Translations under genes and position numbers: made by a program
The notes under the pieces: model-generated
The model's database searches: none
What the model was told of the DNA's origin: nothing
What the model saw: only the letters and a program-made list of their open reading frames with translations
Shown here: positions 3,375 through 48,456 of the stretch, piece after piece
How the letters are laid out: each line of letters begins with the position of its first letter
Numbering within the stretch: position 1 is the first letter of the stretch
DNA from: a virus
Taxonomy: Duplodnaviria > Heunggongvirae > Uroviricota > Caudoviricetes
Reading direction: 5' to 3' (one strand)
Length of the DNA: 48,456 nucleotides
IMG/VR virus record: IMGVR_UViG_2850808358_000014

Positions 3375-3386
3375 CGTTCCCCCTGC

Positions 3387-3676: not shown

Positions 3677-3700
3677 ATGGAGTGCCCATAGAATCTCCCG

Positions 3701-4962: not shown

Positions 4963-4991
4963 AGTCAGAAATTCCTTTTCGACTTAAAAAA

Positions 4992-5019: not shown

Positions 5020-5139
5020 TTATAATCATAGTTGCATTTTGTGCAATAGAATTGAGTTGCATTGCAAATTATGAAATGATTTACGGCAACAGTAGTCACC
5101 ATGCTGTTAACCTCGTAAGCAAAAGCCCGATAAGCTTCC

Positions 5140-5196
5140 TCCTGTACTTATCGGGCTTTTTTTGGGTACAAAAAGCCGGATTTTCTCCGGCCTGTG
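5140..5196. terminator. pair of hairpin plus T-run terminators (bidirectional)
   Basis: CCCGATAAG...CTTATCGGG followed by T7 on plus; GCCGGA-TTTTC-TCCGGC followed by U-run on minus, almost identical to the hairpin near 2940. Confidence 0.5.
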
Positions 5197-5199
5197 CGT

Positions 5200-5610
5200 T
5201 CAGAACGGAATATCATCACCGTAGGGGTCATCGTCTCCCGCTGGTGGCTGATTACCCTGTGTGCCTGTGGTTTTGCGTCTGTTCCCGCCAGGGCGTGCCG
5301 CTCGGGCACTGATTACGCTGTCGGCAATAACCTGATAACCCTGCCGCGTTTCCCCGTTCTGTCCGGTCCACTGGCTGACCTGCATCGTGCCGGATACGCT
5401 GGCAACGTCGCCTTTTTGATGTTTAGCCAGGAAGTCGGCCTGCTTACCAAATGCCATCACCGATAGCCATAACGTCGCCTGTCCGTCCTGTGCCTGGCTG
5501 CATGGCAGCGATACCGCCATACGCGCCAGCGTCATCGGTGTGCCCTTGCTGGTCTGTTTTACCTGCGGGTCGTCCACCAACCGTCCGTAAGCTGCTATCT
5601 GTGCTGTCAT
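5200..5610 (-). CDS. ssb: single-stranded DNA-binding protein (short phage/plasmid type)
   Basis: OB-fold-like N-terminus, Gly/Gln-rich linker and acidic C-terminal tail ending DDDPYGDDIPF. Confidence 0.85.
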   Translation of the reverse strand: MTAQIAAYGRLVDDPQVKQTSKGTPMTLARMAVSLPCSQAQDGQATLWLSVMAFGKQADFLAKHQKGDVASVSGTMQVSQWTGQNGETRQGYQVIADSVISARAARPGGNRRKTTGTQGNQPPAGDDDPYGDDIPF

Positions 5611-5885
5611 GATTCCACCTCTCCGGTTTTAACGTTGATGGTTGTTACCTGTTCCGCTTCGGCAATCTCCCGTTCTGTCAGCGTGGCAAAGTTTGCCGCT
5701 GCTGTGGTCATGAATGCGCTTATCAGGTCGGGATGTTCCTTCGCGTATCCTTCCCCCGCGTGGCGGTCTATCGTTCTGATTGCCACCTTTAAAGCGTGCT
5801 CTGTCATGTCTAACGCGCGATATTTCGGTTCTGTTCTGTCTCTGCGTTTTTTGAGTGATTTATTAAATTTTCCTGAAGTGTGCAT
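5607..5885 (-). CDS. hypothetical protein (92-aa ORF; true start may be internal)
   Basis: ORF between the origin and ssb; no family recognised. Confidence 0.45.
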   Translation of the reverse strand: MHTSGKFNKSLKKRRDRTEPKYRALDMTEHALKVAIRTIDRHAGEGYAKEHPDLISAFMTTAAANFATLTEREIAEAEQVTTINVKTGEVES

Positions 5886-5929
5886 GTTTATTTTTACCCC
5901 CTCGTTTAAAAAGTTTTGAGTTGTGCCTC

Positions 5930-6160
5930 CCCTTGTCTACCTTATCTACCTTGCTGGCCCTCATGCCAGTAATGGCGCGGCTTTCAGCGGGTAGAGTGTT
6001 TTTATCCACTATCTACCCCGTGTCTACCTCCCTGTCTGATTCAGGTAAAATCAGGTAGAGAGGGTAGATAGTGGGTAGACAGTAAAAAAAAGCTGTCTAC
6101 CTAACTTAATGTACTGAATTAAATGTATTTTCCTTTGCTCAGGTAGACAGCAATTACAAA
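5930..6160. repeat. replication origin: about 10 iterons of consensus YNTCTACC in both orientations plus an AT-rich stretch
   Basis: TTGTCTACC, TTATCTACC, CTATCTACC, GTGTCTACC, CTGTCTACC and inverted GGTAGAG/GGTAGAT/GGTAGAC copies directly 3' of the primase gene. Confidence 0.6.
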
Positions 6161-6163
6161 AAA

Positions 6164-7917
6164 TTATAAAAACGCGTCGCACTCGTCTGTTGTTATTGCG
6201 TTAGTCTGCGTTACCCCCTTAACTTTCCGCGTAATATATTCATGTCCGTAAACTTTTGCGGCAGGCTTCATAGCCTTGCCAAAGTCATTTACGTTTAGCG
6301 GTTTGCTCCTGCCTGCGTATGCCATAAACGCCAGATAGACGCGGTAAAGGCTGTTCCTGGTCGTGTACTTCACTGAATCACCACCGCCACCCATCATCAG
6401 GCCGCGCGCTTCCTCCAGAAAATTCAGGAACTGGCAAAACTCAATAACCGGATCCGTCTGTTGCTTTATTGCCAGTGCTTCATCACCGTCACGCTGTTCC
6501 AGTAGTAAAGCCCGTGCCTTCTCAGGGTCGGTAAAGTTCGCCAGCAATCGGCGGATAATAACGGGGATTTCAGCCGCAATCTTTTCCGGTAGCTCCCTGT
6601 CTTTTTCGGCCTCACTGACGATATTGTCGAAACGGAAAATCACGCGACGACGTGCCACACCTCCGGCCCGTTCGGTGAATATCATCGGGTTGTTGTCGGT
6701 CGCCAGCACCACCGCCCTGATTACCGCCGTGAAACGCTTTTCATATTTCGGGTTAATTTCCACGGGTCGCCGCCCGTGATTTTCTTGATGCCCGTTCCTT
6801 CGCCTGTATATTTCGGCTGGTCAGCCAGGACGATAAGACGACTCCCGACAACCTGCGCACGTCCACCAGCATCATCAAGCGATGTCATTTCAGCGCTTAC
6901 CGTGTTCTGTTTCCCTGCCAGAAGGCTGGCTATGTGTGTGAATGTACTTTTACCGCTCCCGCCGTCTCCGGTGGCCTCAATAAACATCTGCCAGTCGTAC
7001 CGGTTCGCCATAATCATGTAAAGCGCGGCACATATGCGCATCATCTTGCGCGGGTCTTTTCCGGCTGCGTGATCAAGCCATTTATGAAAGTTTGGCGCGT
7101 TGTCGCGGATATTCTCCCCTGGTGCTGGTGGCGTGTACTCAATGCCGTTGTGCGTGGTGATCCAGTTCTCCGGCGTGTGCGGGGAAAATTCCCCCGTTTT
7201 CAGGTTAAGCACACCATTAGTGAACGGTAGCAAATCACTGGACGGCTCGCCCATCGGGTCAGCAATAACTTTTAACGCTTCAACGGCGTTATTAATTGCC
7301 CGCTTGCTGAATGTGGCCCCGTGTTCTGAATAAACCGCCACCATTTCGCGGCTCAGTTCCATTGTGCTGACCGGACACCATATCCCGCCGCGCCATACGT
7401 GAACGATTTCACTTTCCGGATGCACACAAACGCCATCAAATCGACCAGCAAGCATCTGTGCGCGCTCACTGTCTGCCATCTGCGAAAGTTGCGCCTTTTG
7501 CTTTACCGGAAGCTCAATGACCAGACCATCAGAAAGATTCTGGCGTTCACGGGCCAGATATTCGCGCCAGTTCTGCACCTCCTGGCCGTGCATACCCTCA
7601 AGATAAAAATTTGCATCCTGTACACCTGCCGCCGCCAGCTTCTGACCAATCGCCTTGATCATTACAGGCTCAAGATGTCCGGCTCTGTATATGCGTGCTG
7701 ATTTTCTGCCATCCGGCACAATTTGCAGATTATCCAGTTCGGATAGCTGCTGCTCTCCAAGCCACACAGGAGGCTCATTATCTCCGGCTGTACGCGCGTC
7801 ATGTTCCTGCCACTGTTTCGCGTGTGCCCAGGCATCACTACCCGCAAAGATAATTACCTCTGTGTCTTTGTGTTTTATTCCGCGTGGCTGTTTTTTTACG
7901 TTCGGTGCCAGTTTCAT
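6164..7917 (-). pseudogene. P4-family primase/helicase, frameshifted
   Basis: 398-aa fragment with toprim-like N-terminus and Walker A GDGGSGKST, plus a 199-aa fragment in another frame; the join ...ITGGDP|VEINPKYEK falls at a G/C run near 6765. Confidence 0.75.
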
Positions 7918-8213
7918 TTTTTACCCCTGAATACGTTAAGCATCTTTTTTATTTCCTGAATATTGGCGCGTGCTTTCTCCCTGCTGGTGGGCACGTTACG
8001 CGGTACGGCCTGCACAAGAGAAAAATCACGGTCGAACTGATAAACAGGCATCACGCAATCATATTCGTAGCCTTCACGACGGTAGGTTACGCGCCGTTCC
8101 TCCACGCCCTTAATTATTACCGTGCCGCCGTACTTATCGCGGTAAATATCCCCGCGCATGAATTTAGTGCGAGTTTTGCCGCTGGCAGTTAAGCCAGGAT
8201 ATTTAAGTTTCAT
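7914..8213 (-). CDS. hypothetical protein, 99 aa
   Basis: Intact ORF whose stop overlaps the primase start; no family recognised. Confidence 0.5.
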   Translation of the reverse strand: MKLKYPGLTASGKTRTKFMRGDIYRDKYGGTVIIKGVEERRVTYRREGYEYDCVMPVYQFDRDFSLVQAVPRNVPTSREKARANIQEIKKMLNVFRGKK

Positions 8214-8218
8214 TATTT

Positions 8219-8452
8219 TTATTCTCCGGTGTGGGGCGCTTTATACTGGTCGTGTAATGTCTCTATTTCCTGCAACTCATTTATTACAGGCTCAAGAAGC
8301 GTTATTAATGCCGTGACAATCCTTGATTTCTGTTTATCACGCTCATTATCGCCAAATGTTTCCAGACACATTTGCAATATTTCCAACATATTTTCACTGT
8401 GAGAAAGTGCAAGAAATGCGCGGTCTGTTATTTCAATGTAAATATCACGCAT
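8219..8452 (-). CDS. hypothetical protein, 77 aa (AT-rich)
   Basis: Intact ORF abutting the IS110-family left end. Confidence 0.5.
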   Translation of the reverse strand: MRDIYIEITDRAFLALSHSENMLEILQMCLETFGDNERDKQKSRIVTALITLLEPVINELQEIETLHDQYKAPHTGE

Positions 8453-8459
8453 AACCCCG

Positions 8460-35808: not shown

Positions 35809-36230
35809 TTATTTCTGGCTTTCAGGTGAGAACAGATCAGGCTGATGACGTCGTGTATGCAGCTTTCTCTGGCGGGCAATAATCTGGTAGATCTGCGGCT
35901 GGGACAGGCGGTACTGGCGACGCAGTTCTTCCATGTTACGACCATTGAACTGGCAGTAAAGCAAATCGTCGCGTAACGCGGTCAGGATCGTATCGCCGCA
36001 GGGGATGTAAAACTGCCGCCCCCCAGAAAACAGGACAGGGCAACGGCCTGTTTACGGGCAAGCTCACGGGGATTGCTGACGTTCTGGCGTTTCAGTTCGT
36101 TTTCCAGAACATCAATCAGATCAACCACTGAACGGGGCCAGCGTGATTCCAGTTCCGGGGCCGGGATGTTATCAATATGCCCGATTAACTGGCGAATTGC
36201 CGGATCGTGTTCAAATAAATCATGCTGCAT
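35809..36230 (-). pseudogene. C: late transcription activator C, frameshifted
   Basis: MQHDLFEHDPAIRQLIGHID... matches Mu C up to ...SCFLGG, then slips at a run of about 6 G/C near 36021. Confidence 0.85.
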
Positions 36231-36341
36231 ATTTTCCCCGGTTAACAGACAAAAAGATACACCACGGCACTGATGGTTATCAGAACCACAAGGGCAATCA
36301 CTTTTATCGCATTAATCAGCGTGGACGGCCCGAAACATTCA

Positions 36342-36572
36342 TCACTGAATTTTCTGTACACAATATTTTTCCTTATAACGTTGACAGTGGTGAAGAATTT
36401 CCGGCATATCAACTGACTGCCAGCCTTTCATGTAATAACTGCCGTGGGTGCCATCATGACCGGTATAGTCGCGGGGCGCAGGCCGTGGCCCACCGGCGAC
36501 ACGGTGCAAAACCTCCTGACGCAGCCGCTCACGTCTGCCAAGATGAAAGGATGCATTCCAGCCTTTACCCAT
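36342..36572 (-). CDS. small hypothetical protein between mor and C
   Basis: 76-aa ORF; a possible 46-aa hydrophobic ORF follows at about 36231-36345. Confidence 0.55.
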   Translation of the reverse strand: MGKGWNASFHLGRRERLRQEVLHRVAGGPRPAPRDYTGHDGTHGSYYMKGWQSVDMPEILHHCQRYKEKYCVQKIQ

Positions 36573-36614
36573 GATGATTTCCCCCGGTACGGTTATTCAT
36601 CACAGGATATTGAG

Positions 36615-36645
36615 GACGTAAAAAAAGCCGGATTAACCGGCTTTA
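36615..36645 (-). terminator. rho-independent terminator directly after mor (early-operon terminator)
   Basis: GCCGG-ATTAA-CCGGC hairpin followed by U7 on the minus strand, 9 bp after the mor stop. Confidence 0.55.
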
Positions 36646-36649
36646 CTGT

Positions 36650-37039
36650 TTACAGAAGTGAGGGCTGGTACTGGCGGTATTTCAGCCGTCGCATCCGGCG
36701 AATGGCCTTGTAAACCGTATTGAAAGTGACACCATAACGGGTGGTCAGTTCGCTGACGTTGCGACCGTTAAAATCATTCCAGATACGCAAATCCCGAATC
36801 AGCGAGTCCAGAACCTGACCGCGTGGAATGTAGACCTGACCGCCGCCCAGATGCTTACAGATAGCCACAACAATCTCCAGTGAATGGGCAGGATCAACAC
36901 CCAGCCGGGACAATTCCCCGCGTAGTAAATCGTTCAGCTCCGCCAGCAGTGCCGGAAAGCGTGACGTATCCTCTGCGGGATTGTCAAGATGTGCCAGGAT
37001 GGTGTCATCCTGCAAATCACCAAATAAATCTTCCGTCAT
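36650..37039 (-). CDS. mor: Mor, middle operon regulator
   Basis: 129 aa, MTEDLFGDLQDDTILAHLDNPAEDTSRF... matches Mu Mor. Confidence 0.95.
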   Translation of the reverse strand: MTEDLFGDLQDDTILAHLDNPAEDTSRFPALLAELNDLLRGELSRLGVDPAHSLEIVVAICKHLGGGQVYIPRGQVLDSLIRDLRIWNDFNGRNVSELTTRYGVTFNTVYKAIRRMRRLKYRQYQPSLL

Positions 37040-37586
37040 TGTGCCATCCTCCGTGTCTTTCTGGCATGGGCATAAGCCGCCGTCATGGCATCATAGCCGC
37101 GCAGTTCACGACCAGACGGACTGACCGGCAATGGAATCCCGTGACGGGAAAAGGCTTCACGAATACAGCGGATGTGCCACTGTTTCAGGGTTTCAAGCAC
37201 AACTTGCAACGATTCTCCGTGGCACCAAGCCAGCGTGGAAACACCCTGTCCGCCATTACGTTTCGCCGTCAGGCGCTGAACATATTTATCCAGCGCCACA
37301 TCACCGCCATCGGTAATAAAACCGTCTTCTGCCATCTGCTGCCAGACTTTGTATACCTTCTCGCGGGAGTGACATGCCCCTTAAAGCGGCGACGTGGATG
37401 TTTATTCAGCTTCTTAAAGCCGCGTTCTTTCATGGCATCGAGCACCTGTTCCAGTTGCGTAACCGTAAGCTCGCGGCAACTGGTTTTGCCCGTTTTCTGC
37501 ATCAGAAAAGCGCGGTAAGTGTCGTCGTCGAGTTGTAGCTCCCGACGGGCGACATGGATTAATTTAATCAGGGATGTGCGATTCAT
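37036..37586 (-). pseudogene. gemA: GemA, frameshifted
   Basis: 105-aa and 99-aa fragments; join ...HPRRRFKG|ACHSRE... at a G/C run near 37378. Confidence 0.85.
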
Positions 37587-37655
37587 GATCGTACCTCCGG
37601 AAAGAGGCGGTGCTGCAACACCGCCTGAATTTACACATCAATCAGAGAGGATTTT

Positions 37656-37922
37656 ATGGAAAATAATGTACAACCTTATGATGTTGCAGGTTATGCGATT
37701 GCATCAGCACTGGTGCGCCTTCTGGTGAAGAAGGCGATCATCACCGCAGAAGAGGGCCAAGCCATTTTCAGCTCTTCAGCAGAGATTTTAAAAGATGCGC
37801 CTGCAATGAGAACAAGCCGCCGCGAAAAACTGCAACTGTCAAAGATCATGGAAGACATTATCAGTTCGTTAGACCCAGATGCTGACGGATCTCAAAAGCC
37901 TCAAACACATGAGCGTCAGTAA
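37656..37922 (+). CDS. opposite-strand 88-aa ORF with strong RBS in the early-operon gap
   Basis: AGAGAGGA-N4-ATG; overlaps the 3' end of the upstream early gene by about 60 bp; a competing 56-aa same-strand ORF exists. Confidence 0.35.
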   Translation: MENNVQPYDVAGYAIASALVRLLVKKAIITAEEGQAIFSSSAEILKDAPAMRTSRREKLQLSKIMEDIISSLDPDADGSQKPQTHERQ

Positions 37923-38178
37923 CAATATCCTGGTCTGATAACCCCAGCCTGCGGCGGATGTACTCCTCGCGGGCTGTTTCATTTTGCAGTGCCACTAATG
38001 TTTCCAGACGATTCATTTCGCGGTTGATAATGTCACGAACTTCTCTGGCAGTGAGAGCGTGCTTAATACCATATTCAACGATAGCGCGAACACGTTCCAG
38101 CATCCTTTTTTCAGCCATGACGTTATCAATATTAAGGGGAGTAAATTTAGTTTCATTATCCATATTATTCACCTTCAC
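37861..38178 (-). CDS. Mu early-region protein (gp14-like)
   Basis: 105 aa, conserved position. Confidence 0.75.
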   Translation of the reverse strand: MKVNNMDNETKFTPLNIDNVMAEKRMLERVRAIVEYGIKHALTAREVRDIINREMNRLETLVALQNETAREEYIRRRLGLSDQDIVTDAHVFEAFEIRQHLGLTN

Positions 38179-38347
38179 AATTCATGCACGCCGTGTCATC
38201 GCCCATATCGCAGTGGTTGCATTTCAGCCCGCCACAATGAGGGCACTCTTTCAGATATTCAGGGGCTTCATTACCGCAGGTCGGACATGCCTGTTTCACC
38301 GTGGTGAATGTCCCCAGCCACGAATACGATGTTTCATTGTTTTCCAT
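38165..38347 (-). CDS. small zinc-ribbon protein (Mu gp13-like)
   Basis: 60 aa with CPTC...CPHC...C motifs. Confidence 0.75.
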   Translation of the reverse strand: MENNETSYSWLGTFTTVKQACPTCGNEAPEYLKECPHCGGLKCNHCDMGDDTACMNCEGE

Positions 38348-38903
38348 TGTTTACCTCCGCCTGTTTTTGCGCCCGGATAAATTCGTCAGAAAGGATTTCA
38401 GTCATGCGGCCTTGTGCGGGTGTCATCCCCGTCATGACGTAAATCACATCACCAACACGGAACCACTGGAGAGGTCCGAATATTGTTGCGCTGAAATCCA
38501 GTCCCAGTGCGGGTAAGAGAGCGTCTGTGCGGGCATAAGTGACCGGAATATTCTCCTGCCATATTTTCGCCAGCTCTCTTGCCTGCACCCTGAGATGAGC
38601 AGGTATCCGCGAAGTTCTGGGCCTGCAACTGTTACCTGATGCGGGCCGTTGTACGGTCCACAGCTCCCGCGAGAAGGGGCGCTCATTCCCCGGAAAATTC
38701 ACGCCATGAAAATGACGCCCACCAATACCTGTGCTGAATACTGACCGACAACCACAACCCAGAACCTTATCAAGATGGCGGGCTTCTTCGCGTAGTTTCA
38801 GACAGTCCGCCATAAACTGGTCCCACGCCATCAGTGCTGCGGGATTTGACGTTTTAAAAAACATCACGCCACCTCCTGCACCGCTGCGGGAGCCGGAGAA
38901 CAA
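38334..38903 (-). CDS. Mu early-region protein (gp12-like)
   Basis: 189-aa ORF; N-terminal half has unusual composition. Confidence 0.65.
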   Translation of the reverse strand: MFSGSRSGAGGGVMFFKTSNPAALMAWDQFMADCLKLREEARHLDKVLGCGCRSVFSTGIGGRHFHGVNFPGNERPFSRELWTVQRPASGNSCRPRTSRIPAHLRVQARELAKIWQENIPVTYARTDALLPALGLDFSATIFGPLQWFRVGDVIYVMTGMTPAQGRMTEILSDEFIRAQKQAEVNNGKQ

Positions 38904-39394
38904 TCAAGAATGAGATAACGCAGTACATGGTCGGTGATATTCCAGGCGCTTGAACTGCAAATAAAACGCCCCAGCCGGATATCGATATAAGCCATCACAA
39001 AACGGGGCATTCCCTGTTCGCACATTCTGTTATCCACCTCAGCAACAATGTGGACTGACTCACAGGTCAGCACGCCCGTCGCAAACTCTTTTGCCAGCGC
39101 GGGGATGGTATTACCTTCCACCCAGGGTAATGAGCGACGCCAGTTGCACCACACCGCATCATCAACAGCAGGCTGCTCAGTTGCGTTTCGTCTTACAGGC
39201 GGCGTCGGACGCGGGCGCGGAACGTCATAAAATCCGTTGCATTCGGTGAGCACTCCGGCATCAACCGCATCACGCAGGAAATACACCATTGACGAGGGCA
39301 GCATATTCATTTTTTCAGCCAGAACTCCGCAGGTCAGGCGTCCGTAAGCCCGTAATAATGTGCTGACACCATTCAGAATTTTTGCATCAACCAT
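38864..39394 (-). CDS. Mu early-region protein (gp11-like)
   Basis: 176 aa downstream of gam. Confidence 0.7.
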   Translation of the reverse strand: MVDAKILNGVSTLLRAYGRLTCGVLAEKMNMLPSSMVYFLRDAVDAGVLTECNGFYDVPRPRPTPPVRRNATEQPAVDDAVWCNWRRSLPWVEGNTIPALAKEFATGVLTCESVHIVAEVDNRMCEQGMPRFVMAYIDIRLGRFICSSSAWNITDHVLRYLILDCSPAPAAVQEVA

Positions 39395-39492
39395 GTTTTA
39401 TTCCTCAGTAATCTGTTTCAGGCGCGAGCAATCCCCTGACGTATCGCGCCATAATTAAAAGAATGTGAATTAATTAAATATTAATGGTGGTA

Positions 39493-40017
39493 TTAAATAC
39501 CGGCTTCCTGTTCAAATGGAATAATAGAAAAATCCTCAATGCCTGATTTAACTGTAATTCCGGCAACGCCTGCGACCGCTTTCGGTTCCAGTAAAATCGC
39601 TTCCTTGTTGATTTCCTGCTTCGTGCGAATAAAGCGTTGCAGGCCAAGACGCTCCAGCGTTTCCATCACTGCATCCATACCACGAATACTTACTGATGGT
39701 GGACGGACCCGCCACGATACATCACCGGTGACAAGATTCGCCGTCTTCACTTTGCCGCCGTTCGTCAGTTCGTCGCGGTTCGCTTCACACCATCCCTGAA
39801 CGCCTTTTGAAAGGGTTTCAATATCGGTTTTAATCGGTGCAATCCGGGCTGCAAATTTCTCCGTAATTTCCGCGATGGCATCATTCATTTCCGTTTCCAG
39901 ACGTGATGCTTCGCGCTGTAAATCCCCGATGCGTTTAATATCGGTAATCACCGCATCGCGGTTTTGTGGCACATAAGCCGCTGCGGCACTTTTGATACGT
40001 TTTGCTGGTTTAGCCAT
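39493..40017 (-). CDS. gam: host-nuclease inhibitor protein Gam
   Basis: 174 aa, MAKPAKRIKSAAAAYVPQNRDAV... matches Mu Gam. Confidence 0.9.
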   Translation of the reverse strand: MAKPAKRIKSAAAAYVPQNRDAVITDIKRIGDLQREASRLETEMNDAIAEITEKFAARIAPIKTDIETLSKGVQGWCEANRDELTNGGKVKTANLVTGDVSWRVRPPSVSIRGMDAVMETLERLGLQRFIRTKQEINKEAILLEPKAVAGVAGITVKSGIEDFSIIPFEQEAGI

Positions 40018-40036
40018 AAATTAAAGCTCCTGTTAA

Positions 40037-40336
40037 TTAATATCCGCTGTATACAATGCTGGATACAGCTCGATTGCTTAATTCCATCTTTCGGGCAATG
40101 ACATGAATATCCAGTCCTTCTTTATAAAGTTCACGACATAAATATTTGTCGTGTTCACTGATTCGGTATACACACAATGATATTCCGTGCCTTCTGGCAT
40201 GTGCCCGGAGGGCGGTTGTGGCGACTTTCAGTTTTTCCGCCATTTCTTCAACGGTCATTTTCCCGACGTTGGCTTCGATAAATTCCCGGTCTTCGCGTGA
40301 CCAGCGCTTACGATTACACTTCATGTCAGCCACCAT
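40037..40336 (-). CDS. HTH DNA-binding early protein
   Basis: 99 aa with HTH-like segments (MTVEEMAEKLKVATTALRAHARRHG). Confidence 0.7.
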   Translation of the reverse strand: MVADMKCNRKRWSREDREFIEANVGKMTVEEMAEKLKVATTALRAHARRHGISLCVYRISEHDKYLCRELYKEGLDIHVIARKMELSNRAVSSIVYSGY

Positions 40337-40780
40337 TCAGTACAGCAGAGGCTCGCGCAGTGATGCCGGAATATGCCGCAGCGATAACTGAACCGCTTTC
40401 AGGGCAAGCGAGGAATAACAGCAGCGCGCCCAGCCTTTTGCCATTAACCGGTAATCGCGCCAGATACGCTGCCACATTTCCCGGGCTTCAGGATCTGATG
40501 CGCAGATGTATTCCCGGTCCATGACGTACTCCCATAAATCCACGTTGAACGCACCGCCAAATGCAATGGCGCGGGATATGCTTTCGCCGCAATAACGCGC
40601 ACAGATGCTGTAATGGTCGAAAGCAATCAGGTAAGTCTTTTCACCACAATCATCAACTTTCCGGGCGCAAATAAACTCGCGTAATTCACCACCGTTGTTA
40701 TTGCGTTCCTGAATTCGGATTAATGCCTGAATTTCATTTCGGATTTTGACATTCATTGTCAGCGTTCCTTTCAGTGACAT
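40337..40780 (-). CDS. Mu early-region protein
   Basis: 147 aa, conserved position. Confidence 0.7.
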   Translation of the reverse strand: MSLKGTLTMNVKIRNEIQALIRIQERNNNGGELREFICARKVDDCGEKTYLIAFDHYSICARYCGESISRAIAFGGAFNVDLWEYVMDREYICASDPEAREMWQRIWRDYRLMAKGWARCCYSSLALKAVQLSLRHIPASLREPLLY

Positions 40781-41034
40781 GTTTTTTCAACAGCCATTTC
40801 AGTGACACTGCCACCTGTGATGACACCATCGTTTTTCAAAATCTCAATGGCTTCATGAGCTGACTCATTAATTATTTTCTGGCTTTTGTTAAGCACCAAT
40901 AACGCCACCAGACCTGCAAGTGTAGCCTCATCCCCTTCCATTTCCACACTACCACCTACCGCAATACTGGTGCGCAAATGCCGTCCTTTAGTTCCAGATA
41001 CTGTATTTTTAATTTCAATAATTACCTTTGCCAT
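40771..41034 (-). CDS. Mu early-region protein
   Basis: 87 aa, conserved position. Confidence 0.7.
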   Translation of the reverse strand: MAKVIIEIKNTVSGTKGRHLRTSIAVGGSVEMEGDEATLAGLVALLVLNKSQKIINESAHEAIEILKNDGVITGGSVTEMAVEKTCH

Positions 41035-41045
41035 TTTGTTTCTCC

Positions 41046-41300
41046 TTATTGATTCTGAATAACTGCGCTGGCTTTTACCTTCGCGCCTTTTACCTGCTTA
41101 AAGAAAACCGCGCTGCACCACGGACAACATGCAAAGGAGTCCCATACTTCATTTTCTGGTGAGCATTGCGTCATAATTTGCTCTTTGCATTTGGGGCAAT
41201 TAAATGCAGTCAGAGGCACATTGTTATTCTGTACCCGTTTAACCCATTCAATATATTTTTCAGCTTTAGTACACATCGTTATCTCCAGATAATCTGGCAA
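41046..41300 (-). CDS. Cys-rich small early protein
   Basis: 84 aa with CPKC...CPWC. Confidence 0.7.
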
Positions 41301-41506
41301 CCATTAAGACGGGCCGTCCATACAGAACGGGCCACCCCGGACTTATGCTCCATAATTCTGACCGCGTTTTTTACCAGTTCCACCGGTGGGTAAGTGATTT
41401 CAAGAATCGGACGCGCTACGCCGAGATATGATTCATTTACATGACTCCCGCGCGCCTGTAACCAGTTCTGCGCATCCGTTGCCATTTTTATATTTCGGGC
41501 CATCAT
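41279..41506 (-). CDS. kil: Kil
   Basis: 75-aa ORF directly downstream of B, the position of Mu kil. Confidence 0.75.
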
Positions 41507-41521
41507 AATTTCTTCTCCTTC

Positions 41522-42459
41522 TTAATTACGCAGCAGCGTTGAAATATCAACGTCCAGGTCTAATTCACGGAAAGCCTGACGCAGATAATCTTCGTTAACA
41601 CGCTCACCTTTACCGTGAGCCGTCATGGCGGCAAGGCGAAGTGAATGATTCAGAATGCGAAGCGCACCTGGTTTCTGCGCAATCTGCTGTAATAACTCCA
41701 GTTCTTTTTCGCCGTTAATCTGCCAGGCATCCGCAATAGCTTTTACATCGGCTTTTTTGGTTTTATTAATTGCAGTGCGCTTTGCAATACGGGAAAACAG
41801 ACGGGCAAATTCAACCGTTCTGTTACCCCCGTCATATTTGAATAAACCCGGTGATTTCCCATCAGTACAAGGCCAATACGGGTTGATTCCTGTAACAGGC
41901 GGAGTTCTTCCAGAACTTCGGCACCAAGATGATCAGCTTCGTCGATGATAACCAGCCCCTGTGTACCTTCAAGGCGACGTCGCAGGGCACGGGAGAGTGG
42001 CCCTTTACGGCGTGGTGCGTCATTCATTCCCAGCTCAAACGCCAGTTCAGTAAGACATTCCAGAACGCTGGCACAGGATGGCGTAATGGTGATCATCCAG
42101 ACATTGTTATTGGTGCGGCGATATTCACGGGCCGCTTCGGTTTTGCCCACACCAGGATTGCCACATACAACAGCAATACTTTCAGTCAGGCTGGCAAAAC
42201 GCATACTTGTCCAGATTTGTTTTACCGTCTGCGTTTCCACAAAGCGGGGCGGTTCAGGTAGTTCTGCAACTGCATGATATTTTTCCAGCCAGCGTTGCAG
42301 CATTTGTGAAACACGCTCGTTATCCCCGTTGTACTTATCATTGATAAAACTACTGATAGTTCCGGTAGAAAGCCCGCTCTCAAGAGCAATTTGTTTAAAG
42401 GTGGTTTCTTCATTTTCTACAAGCGTGCGCAGTCCTGCGCGAATATCGGAAATATTCAT
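41522..42459 (-). pseudogene. B: transposition ATPase B, frameshifted
   Basis: MNISDIRAGLRTLVENEETTFKQIAL..., Walker A GNPGVGKT; frame slips after ...YSNMTG at a G/C run near 41829, C-terminal part continues in another frame. Confidence 0.9.
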
Positions 42460-42497
42460 CTGAATAACCTCGTAATTAAATTTTGTTTAAACGTTAA

Positions 42498-44494
42498 TTA
42501 AATGGCTTTTTTACGTCTGTTCTGTTCCAGAATATCCAGCGAATGATTCAGATATTCATCACGCTCAGTTTCGTATTCATCATCACGCTCCTGATTCTTC
42601 ACTCGTTCCGTATTACCGGAAGGCCGGAAAATGCCGACAATTCGTGATTCTGGTGCTTCAGGTTCGGCTATCTGCGGCAGCAGCTCTGCCACTTCCAGTG
42701 CATCCATTTGTTTCTGTGCCTTAATCGCTGCTTTCGTCGCAGATTTCAGTTGTTTCTGGCGGCGGCGATATTCACGGCCTGCCGCAGCATCATTAAACGC
42801 AACAGGTGCCAGACATTCCGCTTCACAGATAAACCGACCGTCCAGGGTGTAGCAATAAACCGTGCTGTGTAACTGCTGTGGATCAAATCTGACCACAACT
42901 TTTTTCACTCCGGCATTCATTAACGCCATGTTGTAATAAACGTTTTTCGCGCCTTTAAGGGAGCCGCCAACTTTAAGCGCGAACTCGCCTTTACGTGAAA
43001 CGTTCACCGCCTCGGCAGGCAGTAACAGCATCCGTTTTTGCTCTTCGGTAGGCTTACGCACAATCGTTCTGGCGTATTCACGCTCAAAAACGTCATCAAA
43101 CGAAAGTTTGCCTCCGCACATTTCTGTTTCACGGCCTGTTCTGGCATTGAACATCGCCACACCTTCGGCAAGGGTTTTCAGAAACAGCTCTGCATCAACA
43201 GCGCGGTCGCCATAGTTATCAGGTTTTGCCTGCGGATTTGGCCCCGTATATGCGCCAGCCAGTGCCGGATGCTTATCAACGTATTCCTCAAGCCCACCAA
43301 CACCGAAAGCACGTTCAACAGGTTTTGCCTGGCCCCAGCCTTTACCGGCAACAACGCTTGTCCAGTGCATTTTCGCCCCATCAGTAAAAACAGTCCTTTT
43401 GGATCGTCCTCTTTTACCTTAAAGCGGTAGCGATTGGGCGCGCCTCCCGTCAGCCATTTATTCGCAGCACCACGGGTGTTATCAATGGTGATGTGAAAAT
43501 CCTCCGGGATACCGTAGCGAGTCACAACATCCATGAACGAGAGGCGAATTGAATCAATGTTCTCGCTCACATCGCAGCGCCAGCCCAGAATTTTTCGGGT
43601 TTTCACATCCTGCCAGAACCATGTTTTCGGACGGATCACATCACCGTTAAACCAGCGTACAAAGACGTTATGCAGATAACCGTCGCCGTTGATCCACTGC
43701 ATGGCGTCCAGGTGTTCCACAGTTCGCTGCTGTGCCGGTATCAGATGCATCAGTGCATGTTCACCTTCACGACAGGCAACAACCATTGCCTCGTCCAGTT
43801 GCTGAATCCGGCGAAAGGCCGTGGCACGGGAGGGAATACTCCAGCCATGCTCGCGGGCTGCCAGTTCCAGACGCTCATAACATTTGCGGAAGGCGGGTTT
43901 TTCCGGTCGCAGATAATCTGCAATCAGAAACTGCCAGGCATCCTCGTCAAATTCACTTTTGTGAACATTGCGACGGGATGCTCCACGTCCATCAACAAGT
44001 GCAGCCGCCCAGTCAGGCTTCGCAAACTTCTGTACCTGGTAATACTTGTCCCGCAAAGTGGATGCGCTGACCTGGTAATGCCCTGCAACGGTCGCAAAAG
44101 CCGTTTTCGTTGAAATCCCCTGGTTCAGCATTTCGTCTGCAGCCTGAACCGCAGGCAACCATTTTTCAGCAAGTCTGCGCTGGGAATCGCTGGCGTTATC
44201 CCATTTGCTCCACAGTGCCTCACGATCATAATCATGGGCTTCCAGCGTGGGGCGGGCGATTTCAAAATACCCCTGGCTTGTTTCTATTTGCTCAGATTTT
44301 AATAACAACTCAGCACGTGCTGCCGCTGGTAGAACTGATATATGAAATTCCAAAGCCTTTGAACCCGTACGCTTGCGACGTAGTTCTGGATGATTGGCTG
44401 CAAGCTTTTCAAGATTGCGGCGAATACTCACCTCATGTTTAGGAAAGCATGACATTCCTACGCATTCTTGCGCTGTTACCCAATGGGTTAACAT
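42498..44494 (-). pseudogene. A: DDE transposase A, frameshifted
   Basis: 448-aa and 290-aa fragments both match Mu A; join ...FLLMG|AKMHWTSVV at a G/C run near 43377; N-terminal ~65 aa differ from Mu (D108-type). Confidence 0.9.
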
Positions 44495-44714
44495 GATGTT
44501 TTCTCCATATACCGAGAAGGCCAAATCTGGGCTGGTTCCATATCCAAATATCTAGCAATGATTGCTTCGTATCGTGGTATATGGCAGCGAAATACGTTAC
44601 GCATAGTGTCAGGCTTTAAGCCTGCCTCTCTGGATAATTGAGATAGTGTCTTCCCTTCATACGAACAGCAGCCTTTATCTGCTCTGCGTGCCAGTCTTGG
44701 TTTTTTGCTGACAT
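44488..44714 (-). pseudogene. ner: Ner-like early regulator (D108-type), frameshifted
   Basis: MSAKNQDWHAEQIKAAVRMKG then a frame slip near 44654; corrected it reads ...KTLSQLSREAGLKPDTMRNVFRCH... and ends overlapping the A start. Confidence 0.75.
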
Positions 44715-44883
44715 TCTGCGATCCTTACTCTCTTAACGTTTTCGGTAACTGATACCGGCTACCGCTATCGGGAAAAACGATAGCGCAGAAAAATGCGCAT
44801 TTCAAGAGCTGTGCGCATTTTTATTTTAACAAATGCAAATCAAAGCATTCTGTAAAATTCTTTATATAACAGAGAGATTGAAC
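44715..44883. promoter_or_regulatory. operator/promoter region between ner and c
   Basis: Divergent intergenic region, the position of operators O1-O3 and promoters Pe/Pc in Mu. Confidence 0.65.
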
Positions 44884-45492
44884 ATGACAGGCGAAAAAGA
44901 AAGCAAAAATGCAGAGCGCATTTTTATGCCCTCGGAAATAATGCGTTTCAAGGAACGCCTTGAAGAGGCAATGAATGGAGAATCAAGCCGGGCGTTTGCA
45001 GCTAAGTGCGGACTTTCTGATGGGGTTATCAGAAACTACCTGTCTGGCAAGACATACCCGTCTTTAGATCGATTAGCACAAATAGCCTACGCAACAGGGC
45101 GTCCAATAGAGTGGTTTATCCAAAGTCAGAGCATGCCAATGGTTGAGCATAAAAATGCTCAAGAGAATAAAAATCCTCAACCTGACCGCAGCACATTGAA
45201 AACTAAACTGATCGCAATTGTCGAATTGTTAGAGGACAAGGAACTGCATTCTGCGATTGAGTTGTTCAGAAAGAAAGGATTTGAAGCTCTTATGCCTGAG
45301 ATTTTTTCTTCCGATGATTCCATCCAGGCTGATTTGCAAGGTATTTCGCAGCAAACCTTACAAACAGCCAAAATGCTTGAATCATTACCAACAGATACCC
45401 GTAAAGAGATTTTGTCAAAGTATGGTATTTATGAACAGGAAGGTCTTGTAGCTCCTTCACAAGAACCACAAGATGTAAAAAAAGCCGTATAA
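44884..45492 (+). CDS. c: repressor c (non-Mu N-terminal DNA-binding region, Mu-like C-terminus)
   Basis: C-terminus ...ILSKYGIYEQEGLVAPSQEPQDVKKAV is close to Mu Repc; start taken at the second ATG, with an SD. Confidence 0.85.
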   Translation: MTGEKESKNAERIFMPSEIMRFKERLEEAMNGESSRAFAAKCGLSDGVIRNYLSGKTYPSLDRLAQIAYATGRPIEWFIQSQSMPMVEHKNAQENKNPQPDRSTLKTKLIAIVELLEDKELHSAIELFRKKGFEALMPEIFSSDDSIQADLQGISQQTLQTAKMLESLPTDTRKEILSKYGIYEQEGLVAPSQEPQDVKKAV

Positions 45493-45649
45493 CAACCATG
45501 AACCAGCTAAAACATACTTCACCTCACATAATCACACATGTAACATACCTAAACGGCATGAGCTGATTTGTGATATGAGTCATTTGGTTACAGCCTGGTT
45601 GTTATCGGTTTTGAACGTTTTTTGAAGCTGTTATTGAAATGATTTGCAG

Positions 45650-45830
45650 TGTTTTTGTTTTTCGTATTTTCAATGAAACAAAAGCAATTTTTTACTATCT
45701 TTCGCGTTTCATTGATTAACGACTAAAATTTGCGCTACAGGCTTGCAAGCCCCACCAAATCTAATCCCATCAGATCCCGAATAATCCAATGTCCTCCCGG
45801 TTTTTTTCGTACTTCAAGTGAATCAATACA
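45650..45830. other. Mu left end attL (MuA binding sites L1-L3)
   Basis: Reverse complement matches the Mu left-end sequence TGTATTGATTCACTTGAAGTACGAAAAAAACCGGGAGGACATTGG... as recalled. Confidence 0.85.
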
Positions 45831-45835
45831 GCCAG
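45831..45835. repeat. GCCAG target-site duplication, copy 2
   Basis: Identical to 8883-8887. Confidence 0.8.
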
Positions 45836-46830
45836 CTACCATCGGTGCGTTACCTGTCGCCGTTGCCCGCTCAGAAGGAGTCCTTGTCGGATACCTCCCT
45901 GGACTGGCCATGCGCCGCATAGCCGACTTACACGCCGGTGAAGCTAAAACTGATGCTCGTGACGCTGCCATCATTGCCGAAGCTGCCCGTACCCTGCCTC
46001 ACGCGCTACGCACGCTGAAACTGGCTGACGAGCAAATCGCCGAACTCTCCATGCTCTGCGGCTTCGATGATGATCTTGCCGCACAGACAACGCAGGCCAG
46101 CAACCGTATCCGCGGCCTTCTGACCCAGATACATCCGGCACTGGAGCGCGTTCTCGGTCCGAGACTTGAGCACCCGGCGGTACTCGATCTTCTCCAGCGA
46201 TATCCCTCACCAGAAAAACTCGCTTCGCTGGGTGAGAAGAAGCTGGCAGCCCAGCTCTGCAAACTTGCGCCTCGTCTGGGTAAACGCCTTGCAGCAGACA
46301 TAGCTCAGGCACTGGCCGAACAAACCGTCGTCGTTCCCGGCACGAATGCCGCTGCCGTAGTACTGCCACGTCTGGCACTCCAGCTCATCACGCTGCGTAA
46401 GCAAAGAGACGAGGTGGCGCTTGAGGTAGAACAGCGAGTTCTTGCTCACCCTCTTTACCCGGTCCTGACCAGTATGCCCGGAGTCGGTGTCAGGACCGCA
46501 GCCAGACTCCTCACCGAGGTCGCCTGCCGCGCCTTCGCCTCTGCCGCACATCTCGCTGCTTATGCTGGCCTTGCGCCGGTAACTCGGCGATCCGGCTCGT
46601 CAATACGCGGTGAGCATCTCTCGCGACGGGGTAATAAAGCTCTCAAACGGGCGTTGTTCCTGTTGGCCTTCGCCGCGCTCAGGGATCCGCTCTCCAGGGC
46701 TTACTACACCCGCAAAATGAGTCAGGGAAAACGACACAATCAGGCGCTTATCGCCCTGGCGAGACGACGCTGCGACGTTCTGTTCGCCATGATGCGCGAC
46801 GGGACTTTTTATACCCCGCAGGGGTCATAA
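45831..46830 (+). pseudogene. IS110-family transposase, C-terminal fragment (continues 8686-8887)
   Basis: In frame with the N-terminal fragment once Mu and one TSD copy are removed; about 60% GC. Confidence 0.85.
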
Positions 46831-46843
46831 CATGCTTGACAAC

Positions 46844-47065
46844 TTAATAGGGGCACCCCCCATTTTCACAATCAGCAACAAGAATATTTTTAGCGTCATT
46901 CAGCGACCGCGTTGCGATGTATCGGATACATTCCAGGGCGAACAATGTGTATTCTTCCCGTTCTTCCTTTCGTGCAAGCTCTGCTGTGCATTCAATATCA
47001 ATAAGCGCGTGCATCAGCGTAGTGAGTGCGGCGGCGGCTGCGTCCGGTGTGGTTTTATTGTGCAT
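46844..47065 (-). CDS. hypothetical protein, 73 aa
   Basis: Start overlaps the stop of the upstream gene (ATGCACAATAA); 3' end abuts the IS right end. Confidence 0.5.
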   Translation of the reverse strand: MHNKTTPDAAAAALTTLMHALIDIECTAELARKEEREEYTLFALECIRYIATRSLNDAKNILVADCENGGCPY

Positions 47066-47228
47066 AGGTTTCCCCCTGGCGAATACGGGCGACAAAAATC
47101 AGATGTGCGTGCGGCAGCTGCGCGCGGGCTTCGCGTTCAGTGGCTGCGGTAACGGTGAATATTGCAATGCTGTCTGTCAGGCACTGCATAAAGCGCCAGA
47201 CAAAGTAAGGGCGTGCGGATACAGCCAT
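47055..47228 (-). CDS. small protein, tandem paralog A (possibly Icd-like)
   Basis: 57 aa with WRF and TEREAR...FVARIRQG motifs; SD AAGGAG-N9-ATG. Confidence 0.5.
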   Translation of the reverse strand: MAVSARPYFVWRFMQCLTDSIAIFTVTAATEREARAQLPHAHLIFVARIRQGETYAQ

Positions 47229-47522
47229 GTGAAAGGCTCCTTTGCTTGATGTAAGGAGTCTCGCCAGCACGCTGTCAAACATGGTGGCGGGACGTAACAG
47301 GGTTGACAGACTGGCAGCAAAGAAACCAGCGAGCGCAAAGGCTCCCCCGTTACGCCCCGCCATAATGCGGGTATGGGTAGGTTTACGGACACAAAAAAAC
47401 CGCATATCGGAATGTAAGCGGCTGTCCGCTTTGCTATTCAGGCTGTCAAACCCGGTCGCCATGTGGGCGACGGGGGAAGAATACAGCCCCACGGTAATTT
47501 TTTGCAAGTTGTTTTTACGCAT
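47229..47522 (-). CDS. hypothetical protein reading in frame into paralog A (no stop as given)
   Basis: Start overlaps the paralog B stop (ATGCGTAA); may be a separate gene merged by a frame error. Confidence 0.4.
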
Positions 47523-47703
47523 GGCCAACCCCCTGACGAATACGGGCCGCGAATACAGCAACACAACCGGACGGGCAATGGTTACGCGCTTCGCGTTCAG
47601 TCCAGGCGGTGACGTGGATGATTTGGGACTCTGACGCACCAAAGGCGATAAAGCGCCAGAGAAAGGCGGTTTGAGAATGTACAAGGGTAGGGGTAGTAGC
47701 CAT
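47515..47703 (-). CDS. small protein, tandem paralog B (possibly Icd-like)
   Basis: 62 aa with WRF and TEREAR...FAARIRQG motifs; same SD spacing as paralog A. Confidence 0.5.
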   Translation of the reverse strand: MATTPTLVHSQTAFLWRFIAFGASESQIIHVTAWTEREARNHCPSGCVAVFAARIRQGVGHA

Positions 47704-47795
47704 GTCGGCAGCCTCCTTGATTGATGGAATGTAACCACCGCCGGAGGTCCTAAGCTCGCTGGCGGTGGACTGTACAGGGTTAGGACTACTGGCAA

Positions 47796-48053
47796 TCAAG
47801 GGAACCAGCCTACCCGAAGGTAGCCCCATACAGCCCACCATTGTATAGGTGTGCGTGTGCGTCGATACAAAAAAGACGCGTGCGGCGTCTGTATCGCCTC
47901 GATTGTCAGCGGGGTCCTAATCCCGGCACCCGTTTTATAAGGTGCACGCGAATCATAGCCTTGGCTGGCAGTGGCGATCAACTGGTTTTTCATACCCGCT
48001 TTATTCAGGTTGTGCGAGTCCCGCCCTTGCAGGTGTGTGGTATGATTTAACAT
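47796..48053 (-). CDS. hypothetical protein, 85 aa, first gene of the leftward operon
   Basis: Internal Met of a longer tracked ORF; lies just downstream of the operator region. Confidence 0.5.
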   Translation of the reverse strand: MLNHTTHLQGRDSHNLNKAGMKNQLIATASQGYDSRAPYKTGAGIRTPLTIEAIQTPHASFLYRRTRTPIQWWAVWGYLRVGWFP

Positions 48054-48054
48054 A

Positions 48055-48258
48055 GCTACCTCGATACTGTTGCTATCGTTGGTGGTTAGACGCCCTGCAT
48101 GTGTTGCGAGCACTGCGGGGCGTTGCTTAATTTGAGTGACAAAACTCAAACTGTGCGCACAGATTAAAATCATGTGTGCGCACATGTCAATACTTAACAT
48201 CTCATTTTTTTTGCTGTATTGTGTGCGCCCATAAAGTCCATTTAAGTGAGGTGCATCA
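48055..48258. promoter_or_regulatory. divergent promoter/operator region with TGTGCGCACA palindromes
   Basis: CTGTGCGCACAG, CATGTGTGCGCACATG and a half-site TGTGTGCGC between the divergent genes. Confidence 0.5.
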
Positions 48259-48456
48259 ATGTCTAGCGGTAACACAAACAACAAATCAGCAAAGAAAAAT
48301 ATTCGATTCCCACATGAGCTTATAGATGGGGTTTATGCCAGCGTTGAACAAGAAAAATTAACTAATCCTAGTGCTAATTTTTCCGCATGGGTCTTAGATG
48401 CCTGTGGACGCAAATTAAAATATGAACAGCGCAGGAAGGCCAAAGAATCAGAATAA
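48259..48456 (+). CDS. small putative DNA-binding regulator, 65 aa
   Basis: Basic N-terminus; divergent from the operon across the palindromic operators; no family confidently recognised. Confidence 0.5.
   Translation: MSSGNTNNKSAKKNIRFPHELIDGVYASVEQEKLTNPSANFSAWVLDACGRKLKYEQRRKAKESE

Follow-up and report, generated by a model that had tools for sequence, protein, structure and literature searches.

In the immI region of phage P22, two ribbon-helix-helix (RHH) repressors, Mnt and Arc, are combined with the divergent promoters P_ant and P_mnt and with the antisense RNA sar. For the phage-inducible chromosomal islands (PICIs) of Gram-negative bacteria (GN-PICIs), control has been ascribed to AlpA, an activator, and whether a repressor exists has been called 'unclear' (PMC6092414). 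Here we describe the control region at positions 48055–48258 of IMG/VR virus record IMGVR_UViG_2850808358_000014 (Caudoviricetes), of which the whole 48,456-bp stretch is referred to below as the window. The region lies between ylcI, a gene for a 65-amino-acid (aa) protein of the YlcI/YnfO (DUF3950) family on the plus strand, and a leftward operon on the minus strand. A preliminary description, made from the sequence alone, had read it as a repressor–operator switch with two perfect palindromes and a half-site that likely served the immunity or induction control of its element. Our analysis supports a small-repressor/operator switch with an antisense back-up, in which YlcI is probably the protein that binds and represses at the TGTGCGCACA sites. 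The repressor–operator layout is borne out by comparison, rather than by experiment, through back-to-back promoters, sites placed on core promoter elements, concerted evolution of the sites and their covariation with the N-terminal arm of YlcI.

Palindromic sites overlap two divergent promoters

The interval ends at two divergent start codons, the ATG of the 65-aa open reading frame (ORF) at 48259 on the plus strand and that of the first leftward ORF at 48053 on the minus strand, so the placement between a small plus-strand gene and a leftward operon was correctly described. The elements of the switch are as follows:

48152–48161, no strand: site O1, a perfect TGTGCGCACA extending over the predicted start site, near 48154, from the final base of the P_left -10 element (-7)
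48161–48190, minus strand: P_left, the promoter of the leftward operon, read from the sequence, with -35 TTGACA (48190 to 48185), an 18-nt spacer and -10 TAATCT (48166 to 48161)
48175–48184, no strand: site O2, a perfect TGTGCGCACA that fills the 10 nt of the P_left spacer adjoining the -35 element
48194–48222, plus strand: P_right, the promoter of the small gene, from a promoter scan, with TTAACA, 17 nt and TATTGT
48222–48231, no strand: site O3, TGTGCGCCCA, a 9/10 match that starts on the last base of the ylcI promoter -10 element
48259–48456, plus strand: ylcI, the ORF of the 65-aa YlcI/YnfO-family (DUF3950) protein, with a GAGG Shine-Dalgarno (SD) sequence at 48248–48251

Exact copies of TGTGCGCACA are found at O1 and O2 and nowhere else in the window, which upholds the two perfect palindromes of the preliminary description. 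The mean of 100 dinucleotide-preserving shuffles of the window gives an expectation of 0.10 copies, and none of these shuffles contained two or more. The supposed half-site, by comparison, proved to be the full-length copy O3, the counterpart of which, in relatives from Klebsiella, Rahnella and Erwinia, is a third perfect TGTGCGCACA. Start to start, the three sites are spaced 23 and 47 bp apart. In nine related loci with exact TGTGCGCACA, the decamer is confined to the intergenic region (6–16 kb checked per locus).

Scanning one genome per species yielded 45 loci encoding relatives, with representatives in Serratia, Klebsiella, Rahnella, Pectobacterium, Xenorhabdus, Proteus, Morganella, Pantoea, Gilliamella, Orbus and other genera. 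When loci were lined up on the conserved (C/T)GTCAA, one order was common to all of them: a GC-rich hairpin comes first, then site 1 and, after exactly 13 nt, site 2; next are xGTCAA, a T-rich stretch of about 25 nt, TA(T/A)NGT and site 3, with 17–36 nt more up to the ATG of the small gene. The arrangement from site 1 through the 13 nt and site 2 to xGTCAA is common to 47 loci from two orders, Enterobacterales and Orbales, and the 23-bp distance between the starts of O1 and O2 is kept in nearly all of them, with 3–4 rows shifted by 1–2 nt or unaligned.

Both promoters can be followed through these relatives. The -35 element of P_left reads TTGAC(A/G) on the minus strand (xGTCAA on the plus strand) in 31 of 37 distinct loci, and a TAnnnT -10 element (TAAGGT, TATGGT, TAATCT, TATATT and others) stands exactly 18 nt downstream in 32 of the 37. 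At two loci, L012 and L007, the homologous TTGACG-18-TATGGT is the sole minus-strand promoter called by the promoter scanner. Judged by these elements, P_left is a sigma-70-type promoter. The -10 element of P_right is TATAGT, TATGGT, TATTGT or TATATT across loci, and, of 41 distinct loci, most have site 3 abutting the TA(T/A)NGT hexamer. The repeated sites thus overlap core elements of both divergent promoters and, because all three lie on such elements, their predicted geometry is that of steric repression. The combination of perfect sites at P_left with an imperfect O3 at the promoter of ylcI itself is as would be expected for tight repression of the target and looser autoregulation.

Two further sequence features adjoin site 1. 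The window has a small inverted repeat, TTTGAGT-N6-ACTCAAA, at 48132–48151, where several relatives have CACCTGTGGATAAGG. A CACCTGTGGATAAGG block is kept between the terminator and site 1 in L003, L004, L005, L012 and L018, the operator types of which differ.

Sites evolve in concert and covary with the YlcI arm

The 10-mer sites share TG...CA ends, while their 6-bp centres fall into at least 12 types and the copies within a locus agree with each other. The types include TGTGCGCACA, TGTTTAAACA, TGCAYAWACA, TGTGTAGACA, TGTGTAAACA, TGTGAACCCA, TGTCCGYACA and TGCGGCCACA, as well as TGCACCCCCA, with site 2 inverted. On average, site 1 and site 2 lie at a distance of 1.4 within loci versus 3.6 between loci (permutation p<5e-5); when each operator type is represented once, the values are 1.75 versus 4.2 (permutation p<5e-5). 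Sites that change together in each element cannot be explained by a host regulator but can be by a specificity factor encoded in the element, and we regard them as candidate element-specific operators.

Operator distance was compared with distances between the neighboring proteins in Mantel tests. The correlation is 0.64 for YlcI residues 12–14 and 0.58 for residues 10–14, in comparison with a non-significant 0.06 for the next 40 residues, which form the core of the protein, and an equally non-significant -0.04 for the Icd-like protein encoded on the other side. Because the codons of the arm lie physically close to the operators, partial tests were made on the intervening sequence; the partial correlation of arm and operator is 0.57 with residues 2–8 as the control and 0.54 with the final 25 nt of the 5' untranslated region (UTR) (p=3e-4).

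Natural exchanges between arms and cores point the same way. Four loci (L012, L007, L014 and L005) have near-identical cores (IRFPH(E/D)LIEEIDASVEREK...SAWVLDACGRKLK). They differ in the arm (YKG, TKG, QKK and KKA) and, in the same order, in the operator (TGTTTAAACA, TGCAYAWACA, TGCACCCCCA and TGTGC(G/A)(A/C)CCA). Conversely, L037 and L027 encode very different cores with (Y/F)KG arms and again have the operator TGTTTAAACA. The window has K-K-N at residues 12–14 with the operator TGTGCGCACA. The specificity factor for the operators is most likely YlcI, and we see the arm–operator covariation together with these natural swaps as the strongest case for YlcI as the putative binder. The exact cassette type of the window occurs in 69 of 5,426 complete Escherichia coli genomes, with other types spread across Enterobacterales and Orbales.

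Loci with a (Y/F)KG arm (L017, L020, L021, L012, L027 and L037) have a fourth TGTTTAAACA-type copy, located 8–9 nt past the -35 element on the ylcI side, and hence four operators.

YlcI is probably a ribbon-helix-helix protein

The 65-aa protein belongs to the YlcI/YnfO family by its matches to NF041551 (57.9 bits versus a cut-off of 30), PF13132 (26.1 versus 25) and phrog_949 (E=3e-26), the last of which is labelled 'unknown function'. An alignment of 40 homologues has two invariant blocks, R16-F17-P18-H19-E20 and F41-S42-x-W44-V45, and highly variable residues 10–14. The AlphaFold2 (AF2) model (pLDDT 76) has an extended N-terminus and two helices, 18–33 and 41–64, with a (G/S)-A-N turn ahead of the second. 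This modelled topology is that expected of one chain of an RHH dimer. Sub-threshold Pfam matches of family members fall on RHH families, namely HicB_lk_antitox (best E 0.002; 9 of 40 members), Arc (0.009), NikA (0.026), CopG_antitoxin (1.6e-4; 4 of 101 members), RHH_5 (0.005) and RHH_1. Taken with the model, they make an RHH-type fold probable. In Arc, the strand residues Q9, N11 and R13 read bases, and K12, N14 and R16 of YlcI would take their positions.

Several observations concern other members of the family. Eleven remote DUF3950 relatives, 120–145 aa long, also match the Pfam family 'Recombinase' (PF07508, large serine recombinases) and one matches Terminase_2, so these proteins are possibly fusions or share helices with those families. 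Phage lambda encodes a homologue (L050, 48142–48303, minus strand; 41% identity, MSTKNRTRRTTTRNIRFPNQMIEQ) about 200 bp from its right end, a gene that in the circular form is divergent from Nu1 across cos. It is unannotated or 'hypothetical' in lambda and in many Stx/lambdoid phages. Inspection by eye alone revealed no obvious repeated TG-N6-CA sites upstream of the lambda gene; a ACCACGTCAA there resembles the satellite site 2/-35 junction. Two satellite-sized records deposited as 'phages', Pasteurella phage Pmp7 (L048, 10.7 kb) and vB_KppS-Ant (L049, 16.5 kb), have int, primase and capsid or terminase genes and also encode an unannotated YlcI homologue, which in both is covered by a long ORF on the opposite strand. 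The 'transcriptional repressor' label in Pmp7 belongs to this long ORF and not to the YlcI homologue, and appears to stem from an Icd-like PHROG match of the ORF.

A predicted antisense RNA faces the start of the leftward operon

To the left of the sites, the interval has the features of an RNA gene on the plus strand:

48038–48046, plus strand: P_as, an extended -10 element TGG TATGAT (TATGAT at 48041–46) inside the first codons of the leftward ORF, read from the sequence
48053–48133, plus strand: predicted cis-antisense RNA of about 80 nt, with predicted ends from about 48053 to about 48130, based on covariation and folding
48062–66 / 48074–78, plus strand: RNA hairpin 1, from the consensus structure
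48082–90, plus strand: conserved GUGGUUAGA in the antisense RNA, from the alignment
48090–48123, plus strand: GC-rich terminator hairpin followed by a T-rich tail, the T-rich tract being on the plus side only

The structure is conserved and its strand can be assigned. Using RNAalifold and pair counts on 35 loci, we found two hairpins in which 96.5% of cells are paired and 15 of 18 pairs have compensatory changes; none of 500 shuffles was as good, and partners slid along the alignment pair in only about 40% of cells. The hairpin region folds better as plus-strand RNA in 40 of 41 loci (mean minimum free energy (MFE) of -23.8 versus -17.5 kcal/mol for the minus strand), and G.U cells number 63 on the plus strand versus 7 if the minus strand were the RNA. 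A reading of the hairpin at 48090–48123 as part of the leftward leader was rejected on these grounds, since T-tract, MFE and G.U pairs all put the structure on the plus strand. The hairpin was also considered as one of the anti-sRNAs AgvB and AsxR of enterohaemorrhagic E. coli (EHEC) and rejected, as these map to the lambdoid moron site. No Rfam family matches the plus-strand RNA.

The promoter is kept along with the structure: a TAnnnT about 45 nt upstream of the conserved GGTTAGA persists across relatives even though the codons that overlap it differ (H, S, D, I). We therefore have a conserved structure on the antisense strand with its own predicted promoter and terminator, and it is quite likely that the structured RNA exists. 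As predicted, it is fully complementary to the leader (5' UTR), SD sequence and AUG of the P_left transcript, and in most loci the loop of hairpin 1 carries an anti-SD CCUC. We interpret it as a cis-antisense RNA that would block translation of the first leftward gene, in which case the left ~75 bp of the interval would be an antisense RNA gene and not passive promoter DNA.

A proposed switch and the alternatives to it

In the model that we propose, YlcI would be an RHH-type dimeric repressor that reads 10-bp TG-N6-CA sites with the residues of its N-terminal strand, with residues 12–14 (K-K-N here) specifying the center of the site and the invariant R16 likely contacting the TG/CA ends. O1 and O2 bracket the -10 element of P_left, and their occupancy would shut off the operon, which in intact relatives comprises icd-like, DUF4222, primase, SSB and capsid genes. 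O3, the weaker site on the promoter of ylcI, would provide negative autoregulation at higher protein concentration. The plus-strand RNA of about 80 nt would begin inside the first leftward gene, stop some 20 nt short of O1, at an intrinsic terminator, and block translation of the Icd-like first gene. The variant found in the window would add two tandem isrK/C4/icd modules of the P1 immI / P4 CI type as an extra layer, the protein switch thus being one of several predicted layers of control. From sequence comparison we infer the binding, the repression, the autoregulation, the expression and action of the RNA, and any link to helper-phage induction.

A number of results weigh against this model. 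P_left of the window falls below the threshold of the promoter scanner, and its -10 element, TAATCT, matches the consensus at 3 of 6 positions. In some loci, site 3 differs from sites 1 and 2 by 3–4 mismatches. Shared ancestry can inflate Mantel tests when the sequences are related, and so can linkage of the gene's 5' end to the adjacent DNA; the partial tests lessen this concern and do not remove it. With regard to the fold, no significant profile or structure match places YlcI in the RHH superfamily, there was no match in PDB sequence and profile searches or in the Foldseek libraries searched, and the hhalign alignment of AKKNIRFPHELIDGV (including NIRFPHEL) with Arc PQFNLRWPREVLDLV (NLRWPREV; checked against PDB 1arq) has an E-value of 0.006 and a probability of only 6%. 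The leftward operon of the window is cut about 1 kb downstream of P_left by about 38.5 kb of insertion sequence (IS) and Mu DNA, and the switch may here be a relic. Finally, PHROGs label Icd-like protein families as 'transcriptional repressor', which makes them a nominal competing candidate.

This label is one of the reasons to consider that the palindromes are operators of some other protein encoded by the element or its helper (an AlpA-like or other helix-turn-helix (HTH) protein, Bro-N or the Icd-like protein), with YlcI acting elsewhere. HTH and Bro-N genes adjoin ylcI in the relatives from E. coli 042 (L001) and E. coli EH41 (L002), and the RHH fold of YlcI is only predicted. Yet the operator covaries with three residues of YlcI and not with the Icd-like protein, which we rejected as the binder on its correlation of -0.04, and the operator–ylcI cassette is identical in the window, L001 and L002 while the genes to its right, including the Bro-N and HTH content, and to its left differ. 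We consider a different binder unlikely.

Slightly less credence still goes to YlcI binding the sites mainly as an activator or bifunctional regulator. Mnt of P22 offers the precedent, as it represses P_ant and stimulates its own promoter, and the back-to-back divergent promoters with an RHH-like protein resemble the mnt/P_ant arrangement. The -35 region of P_right is also poor and T-rich in many loci, as is typical of activated promoters. However, all three sites overlap either a spacer or the stretch from -7 to about +3, and none is found upstream of a -35 element, a placement that favors YlcI as a repressor.

We find it very improbable that the repeats bind a global regulator of the host or have a structural, replication or packaging role, as ori iterons, cos or att do. 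Their TG-N6-CA ends are superficially like CRP or LexA half-sites, and the lambdoid YlcI homologues adjoin cos. Against this, a host factor needs one sequence, whereas the central 6 bp vary between loci and agree within them; the sites sit precisely on promoter hexamers; and GN-PICI origins have been reported downstream of pri (PMC10111431). LexA (CTGT-N8-ACAG) and CRP (TGTGA-N6-TCACA) were each rejected on spacing and on the variation of the centers between loci. That the palindromes arose by chance and have no function is a negligible prospect already refuted by the comparative data for, even though the decamer with one mismatch allowed is not enriched window-wide (5 observed versus 3.1 expected), the two exact copies far exceed expectation, their positions are kept in the 47 loci of two orders and the sites change in concert.

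The proposed switch heads the operon of a disrupted phage satellite

Most of the window is filled by a Mu-like prophage, and the control region lies in the remainder, which is split by two nested insertions:

8888–45830, minus strand: complete Mu-like prophage, inverted, 36,943 bp, with both Mu ends matching exactly and a GCCAG duplication
8883–8887 and 45831–45835: 5-bp target duplication GCCAG flanking Mu
about 8470–8887 and 45831 to about 46850: IS110-family element, with its transposase gene (ATG 8687, stop 46830) split by Mu

The IS110-family element in turn interrupts a small satellite gene of the leftward operon, of which fragments remain at about 8230–8460 and at 46844–47095 on the minus strand. 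Outside the insertions, positions 2256–8244 and 47072–48446 are collinear with the satellite of E. coli EH41 at 81–91% identity. The annotated order in the latter is int, HTH, YlcI/YnfO (on the opposite strand), three Icd-like genes, DUF4222, primase, SSB, capsid, decoration protein and small terminase. The E. coli 042 relative, which lies within the terminase gene of a prophage, has portal, protease and capsid genes. Both of these intact satellites carry int, an AlpA-like HTH gene, Bro-N, Icd-like, DUF4222, primase, SSB and capsid genes. The hallmarks of PICIs and capsid-forming PICIs (cf-PICIs), namely int with alpA, a replication module built on a primase, genes running in one direction, captured capsid or terminase genes and small size, are provided by these two relatives and by the collinearity of the window, with int and alpA lying beyond the window end. 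An int-alpA RNA motif was found in several loci. By this comparison, the control region belongs to a Gram-negative PICI-type phage satellite and not to the Mu prophage. The element of the preliminary description is a PICI-type satellite broken by IS110::Mu. The Mu-like prophage has a repressor region unlike Mu c, with only about 70% of 36000–48456 aligning to Mu, and its ORF at 44833–45492 encodes a different product, of 219 aa.

The first leftward gene in most relatives encodes a 60–70-aa Icd-like protein from a conserved ATG and is followed by DUF4222, primase, SSB and morphogenesis genes. Only 18 codons of this ancestral gene are left in the window and in the EH41 satellite, and the rest of the ORF crosses inserted RNA genes:

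47796–48053, minus strand: first leftward ORF, 85 aa, the first 18 codons of which match the Icd-like first gene of relatives
47869–47945, minus strand: isrK-type RNA (P4 seqA-like) with its own terminator at 47890–47874; RF01394, 64 bits versus a gathering threshold of 50
47758–47845, minus strand: C4 antisense RNA, copy 1 (P1 c4 / P4 CI type); RF01695, 78.6 bits versus 45
47515–47703, minus strand: Icd-like gene 1; NF033153, 60.1 bits versus 25
47435–47484, minus strand: c4-a1b1 targets of module 2; RF03163, 48.5 bits versus 46.7
47393–47471, minus strand: isrK-like RNA of module 2, 35.4 bits
47280–47367, minus strand: C4 RNA, copy 2, of module 2; RF01695, 74.8 bits
47055–47228, minus strand: Icd-like gene 2; NF033153, 53.6 bits

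The 85-aa product has no family match in profile searches. The isrK/C4/icd module is doubled in tandem (47055–47945) and inserted after codon 18 of the ancestral gene, which places C4/CI-type RNA with its target sites upstream of an icd-like gene. Both the zone scheme of GN-PICIs and the presence of C4 and isrK matches in them have been described previously (PMC10111431). In our set, C4 and isrK occur in the window and the EH41 satellite only and are absent from 18 other loci with the same YlcI/operator/antisense core, so they form an acquired add-on layer and not the core of the switch. A promoter-like TTGATC-18-TATGAT at 47952–47981 on the minus strand lies directly upstream of the isrK match, and the inserted module may therefore have its own promoter, independent of P_left.

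Significance and comparison with known systems

Our literature search found no functional study of YlcI, YnfO or DUF3950, and it returned TGTGCGCACA only in unrelated eukaryotic primer lists. The cf-PICI preprint makes no mention of a repressor, and the 'repressor' of EcCIMP1, considered as a counterpart, was rejected as an unrelated PerC/ANR-like protein. The conserved operator cassette, proposed to be autoregulated, at the head of the icd/primase operon is a candidate for what silences the satellite and for what a helper phage must overcome. It is therefore a candidate for the missing repressor of Gram-negative PICIs, for which none had been identified, and it suggests a probable first function for DUF3950/YlcI/YnfO, a family with members in phage lambda and in cryptic prophages of E. 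coli K-12. The natural arm/operator pairs supply a table for specificity swaps and for the sequence-based prediction of satellite hetero-immunity groups. The antisense RNA, being without an Rfam family, is overlooked by current annotation pipelines.

A broader generalization can be offered tentatively, although we lean against counting on it: DUF3950 might be an unrecognised branch of RHH repressors, acting with antisense RNAs as master repressors of the operon for replication and packaging in a large Gram-negative PICI/cf-PICI clade with at least 12 specificity classes. If this were true, hetero-immune classes would be set by about three strand residues (KKN with a GCGC center, YKG with a TTAA center), the Icd-like first gene would also be the target of a new cis-antisense RNA family working alongside DUF3950 repressors, and induction would depend on an anti-repressor from the helper or on convergent transcription through ylcI driven by AlpA.

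By analogy, the locus appears closest in logic to P22 immI, closest in its downstream RNA modules to P1 immI and P4, and closest in role to Stl of the Staphylococcus aureus pathogenicity islands (SaPIs). As in P22 immI, a small repressor gene of RHH type, here putative, is divergent from the operon controlled, short symmetric operators lie over the promoter core, a small cis-antisense RNA, here predicted, covers a translation start, and the strand motif NIRFPHEL resembles NLRWPREV of Arc. The two systems differ in that YlcI is not significantly homologous to either Arc or Mnt (hhalign probability 6%), three 10-bp TG-N6-CA sites take the place of the 21-bp O_arc/O_mnt, the target is an icd-like and satellite replication/packaging operon instead of ant, and the antisense RNA faces the leader of the first gene and not the arc–ant junction.

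The leftward unit has C4, c4-a1b1 targets, isrK (a seqA-like detector) and Icd-like genes in common with P1/P7 immI and with P4 P_LE/CI RNA/seqA. A further likeness to P1 is a promoter upstream of the RNA immunity module that is controlled by a protein, as by C1 at Op51, although here this is predicted. No P1 C1 operator (Op51, ATTGCTCTAATAAATTT-like) was found near the region with up to 3 mismatches, which on this count sets it apart from immI. Unlike P1/P7 immI, the region has no ant gene, and the operon of its relatives runs on into DUF4222 and primase.

Like Stl (Rpr) of SaPIs and Gram-positive PICIs, the locus has a divergent regulator heading a replication/packaging operon (PMC6092414). 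Stl is a large HTH repressor co-transcribed with int, whereas the regulator here is a 65-aa DUF3950 protein whose gene is the only one on its strand. The overall plan is that of GN-PICIs, cf-PICIs and helper-embedded PICIs, with int-alpA, a Bro zone with immunity RNAs, and replication and late zones (PMC10111431), while the GN-PICI literature that we found is silent on a YlcI/DUF3950 repressor, its operators and the antisense RNA. Finally, the predicted antisense component resembles IS10 RNA-OUT and hok-sok, in which a short, terminator-ended RNA likewise arises from inside the 5' end of its target and is complementary to the ribosome-binding site and start codon, with facing promoters about 100 bp apart; it has no sequence relationship to them and, at this locus, is combined with a proposed protein operator switch.

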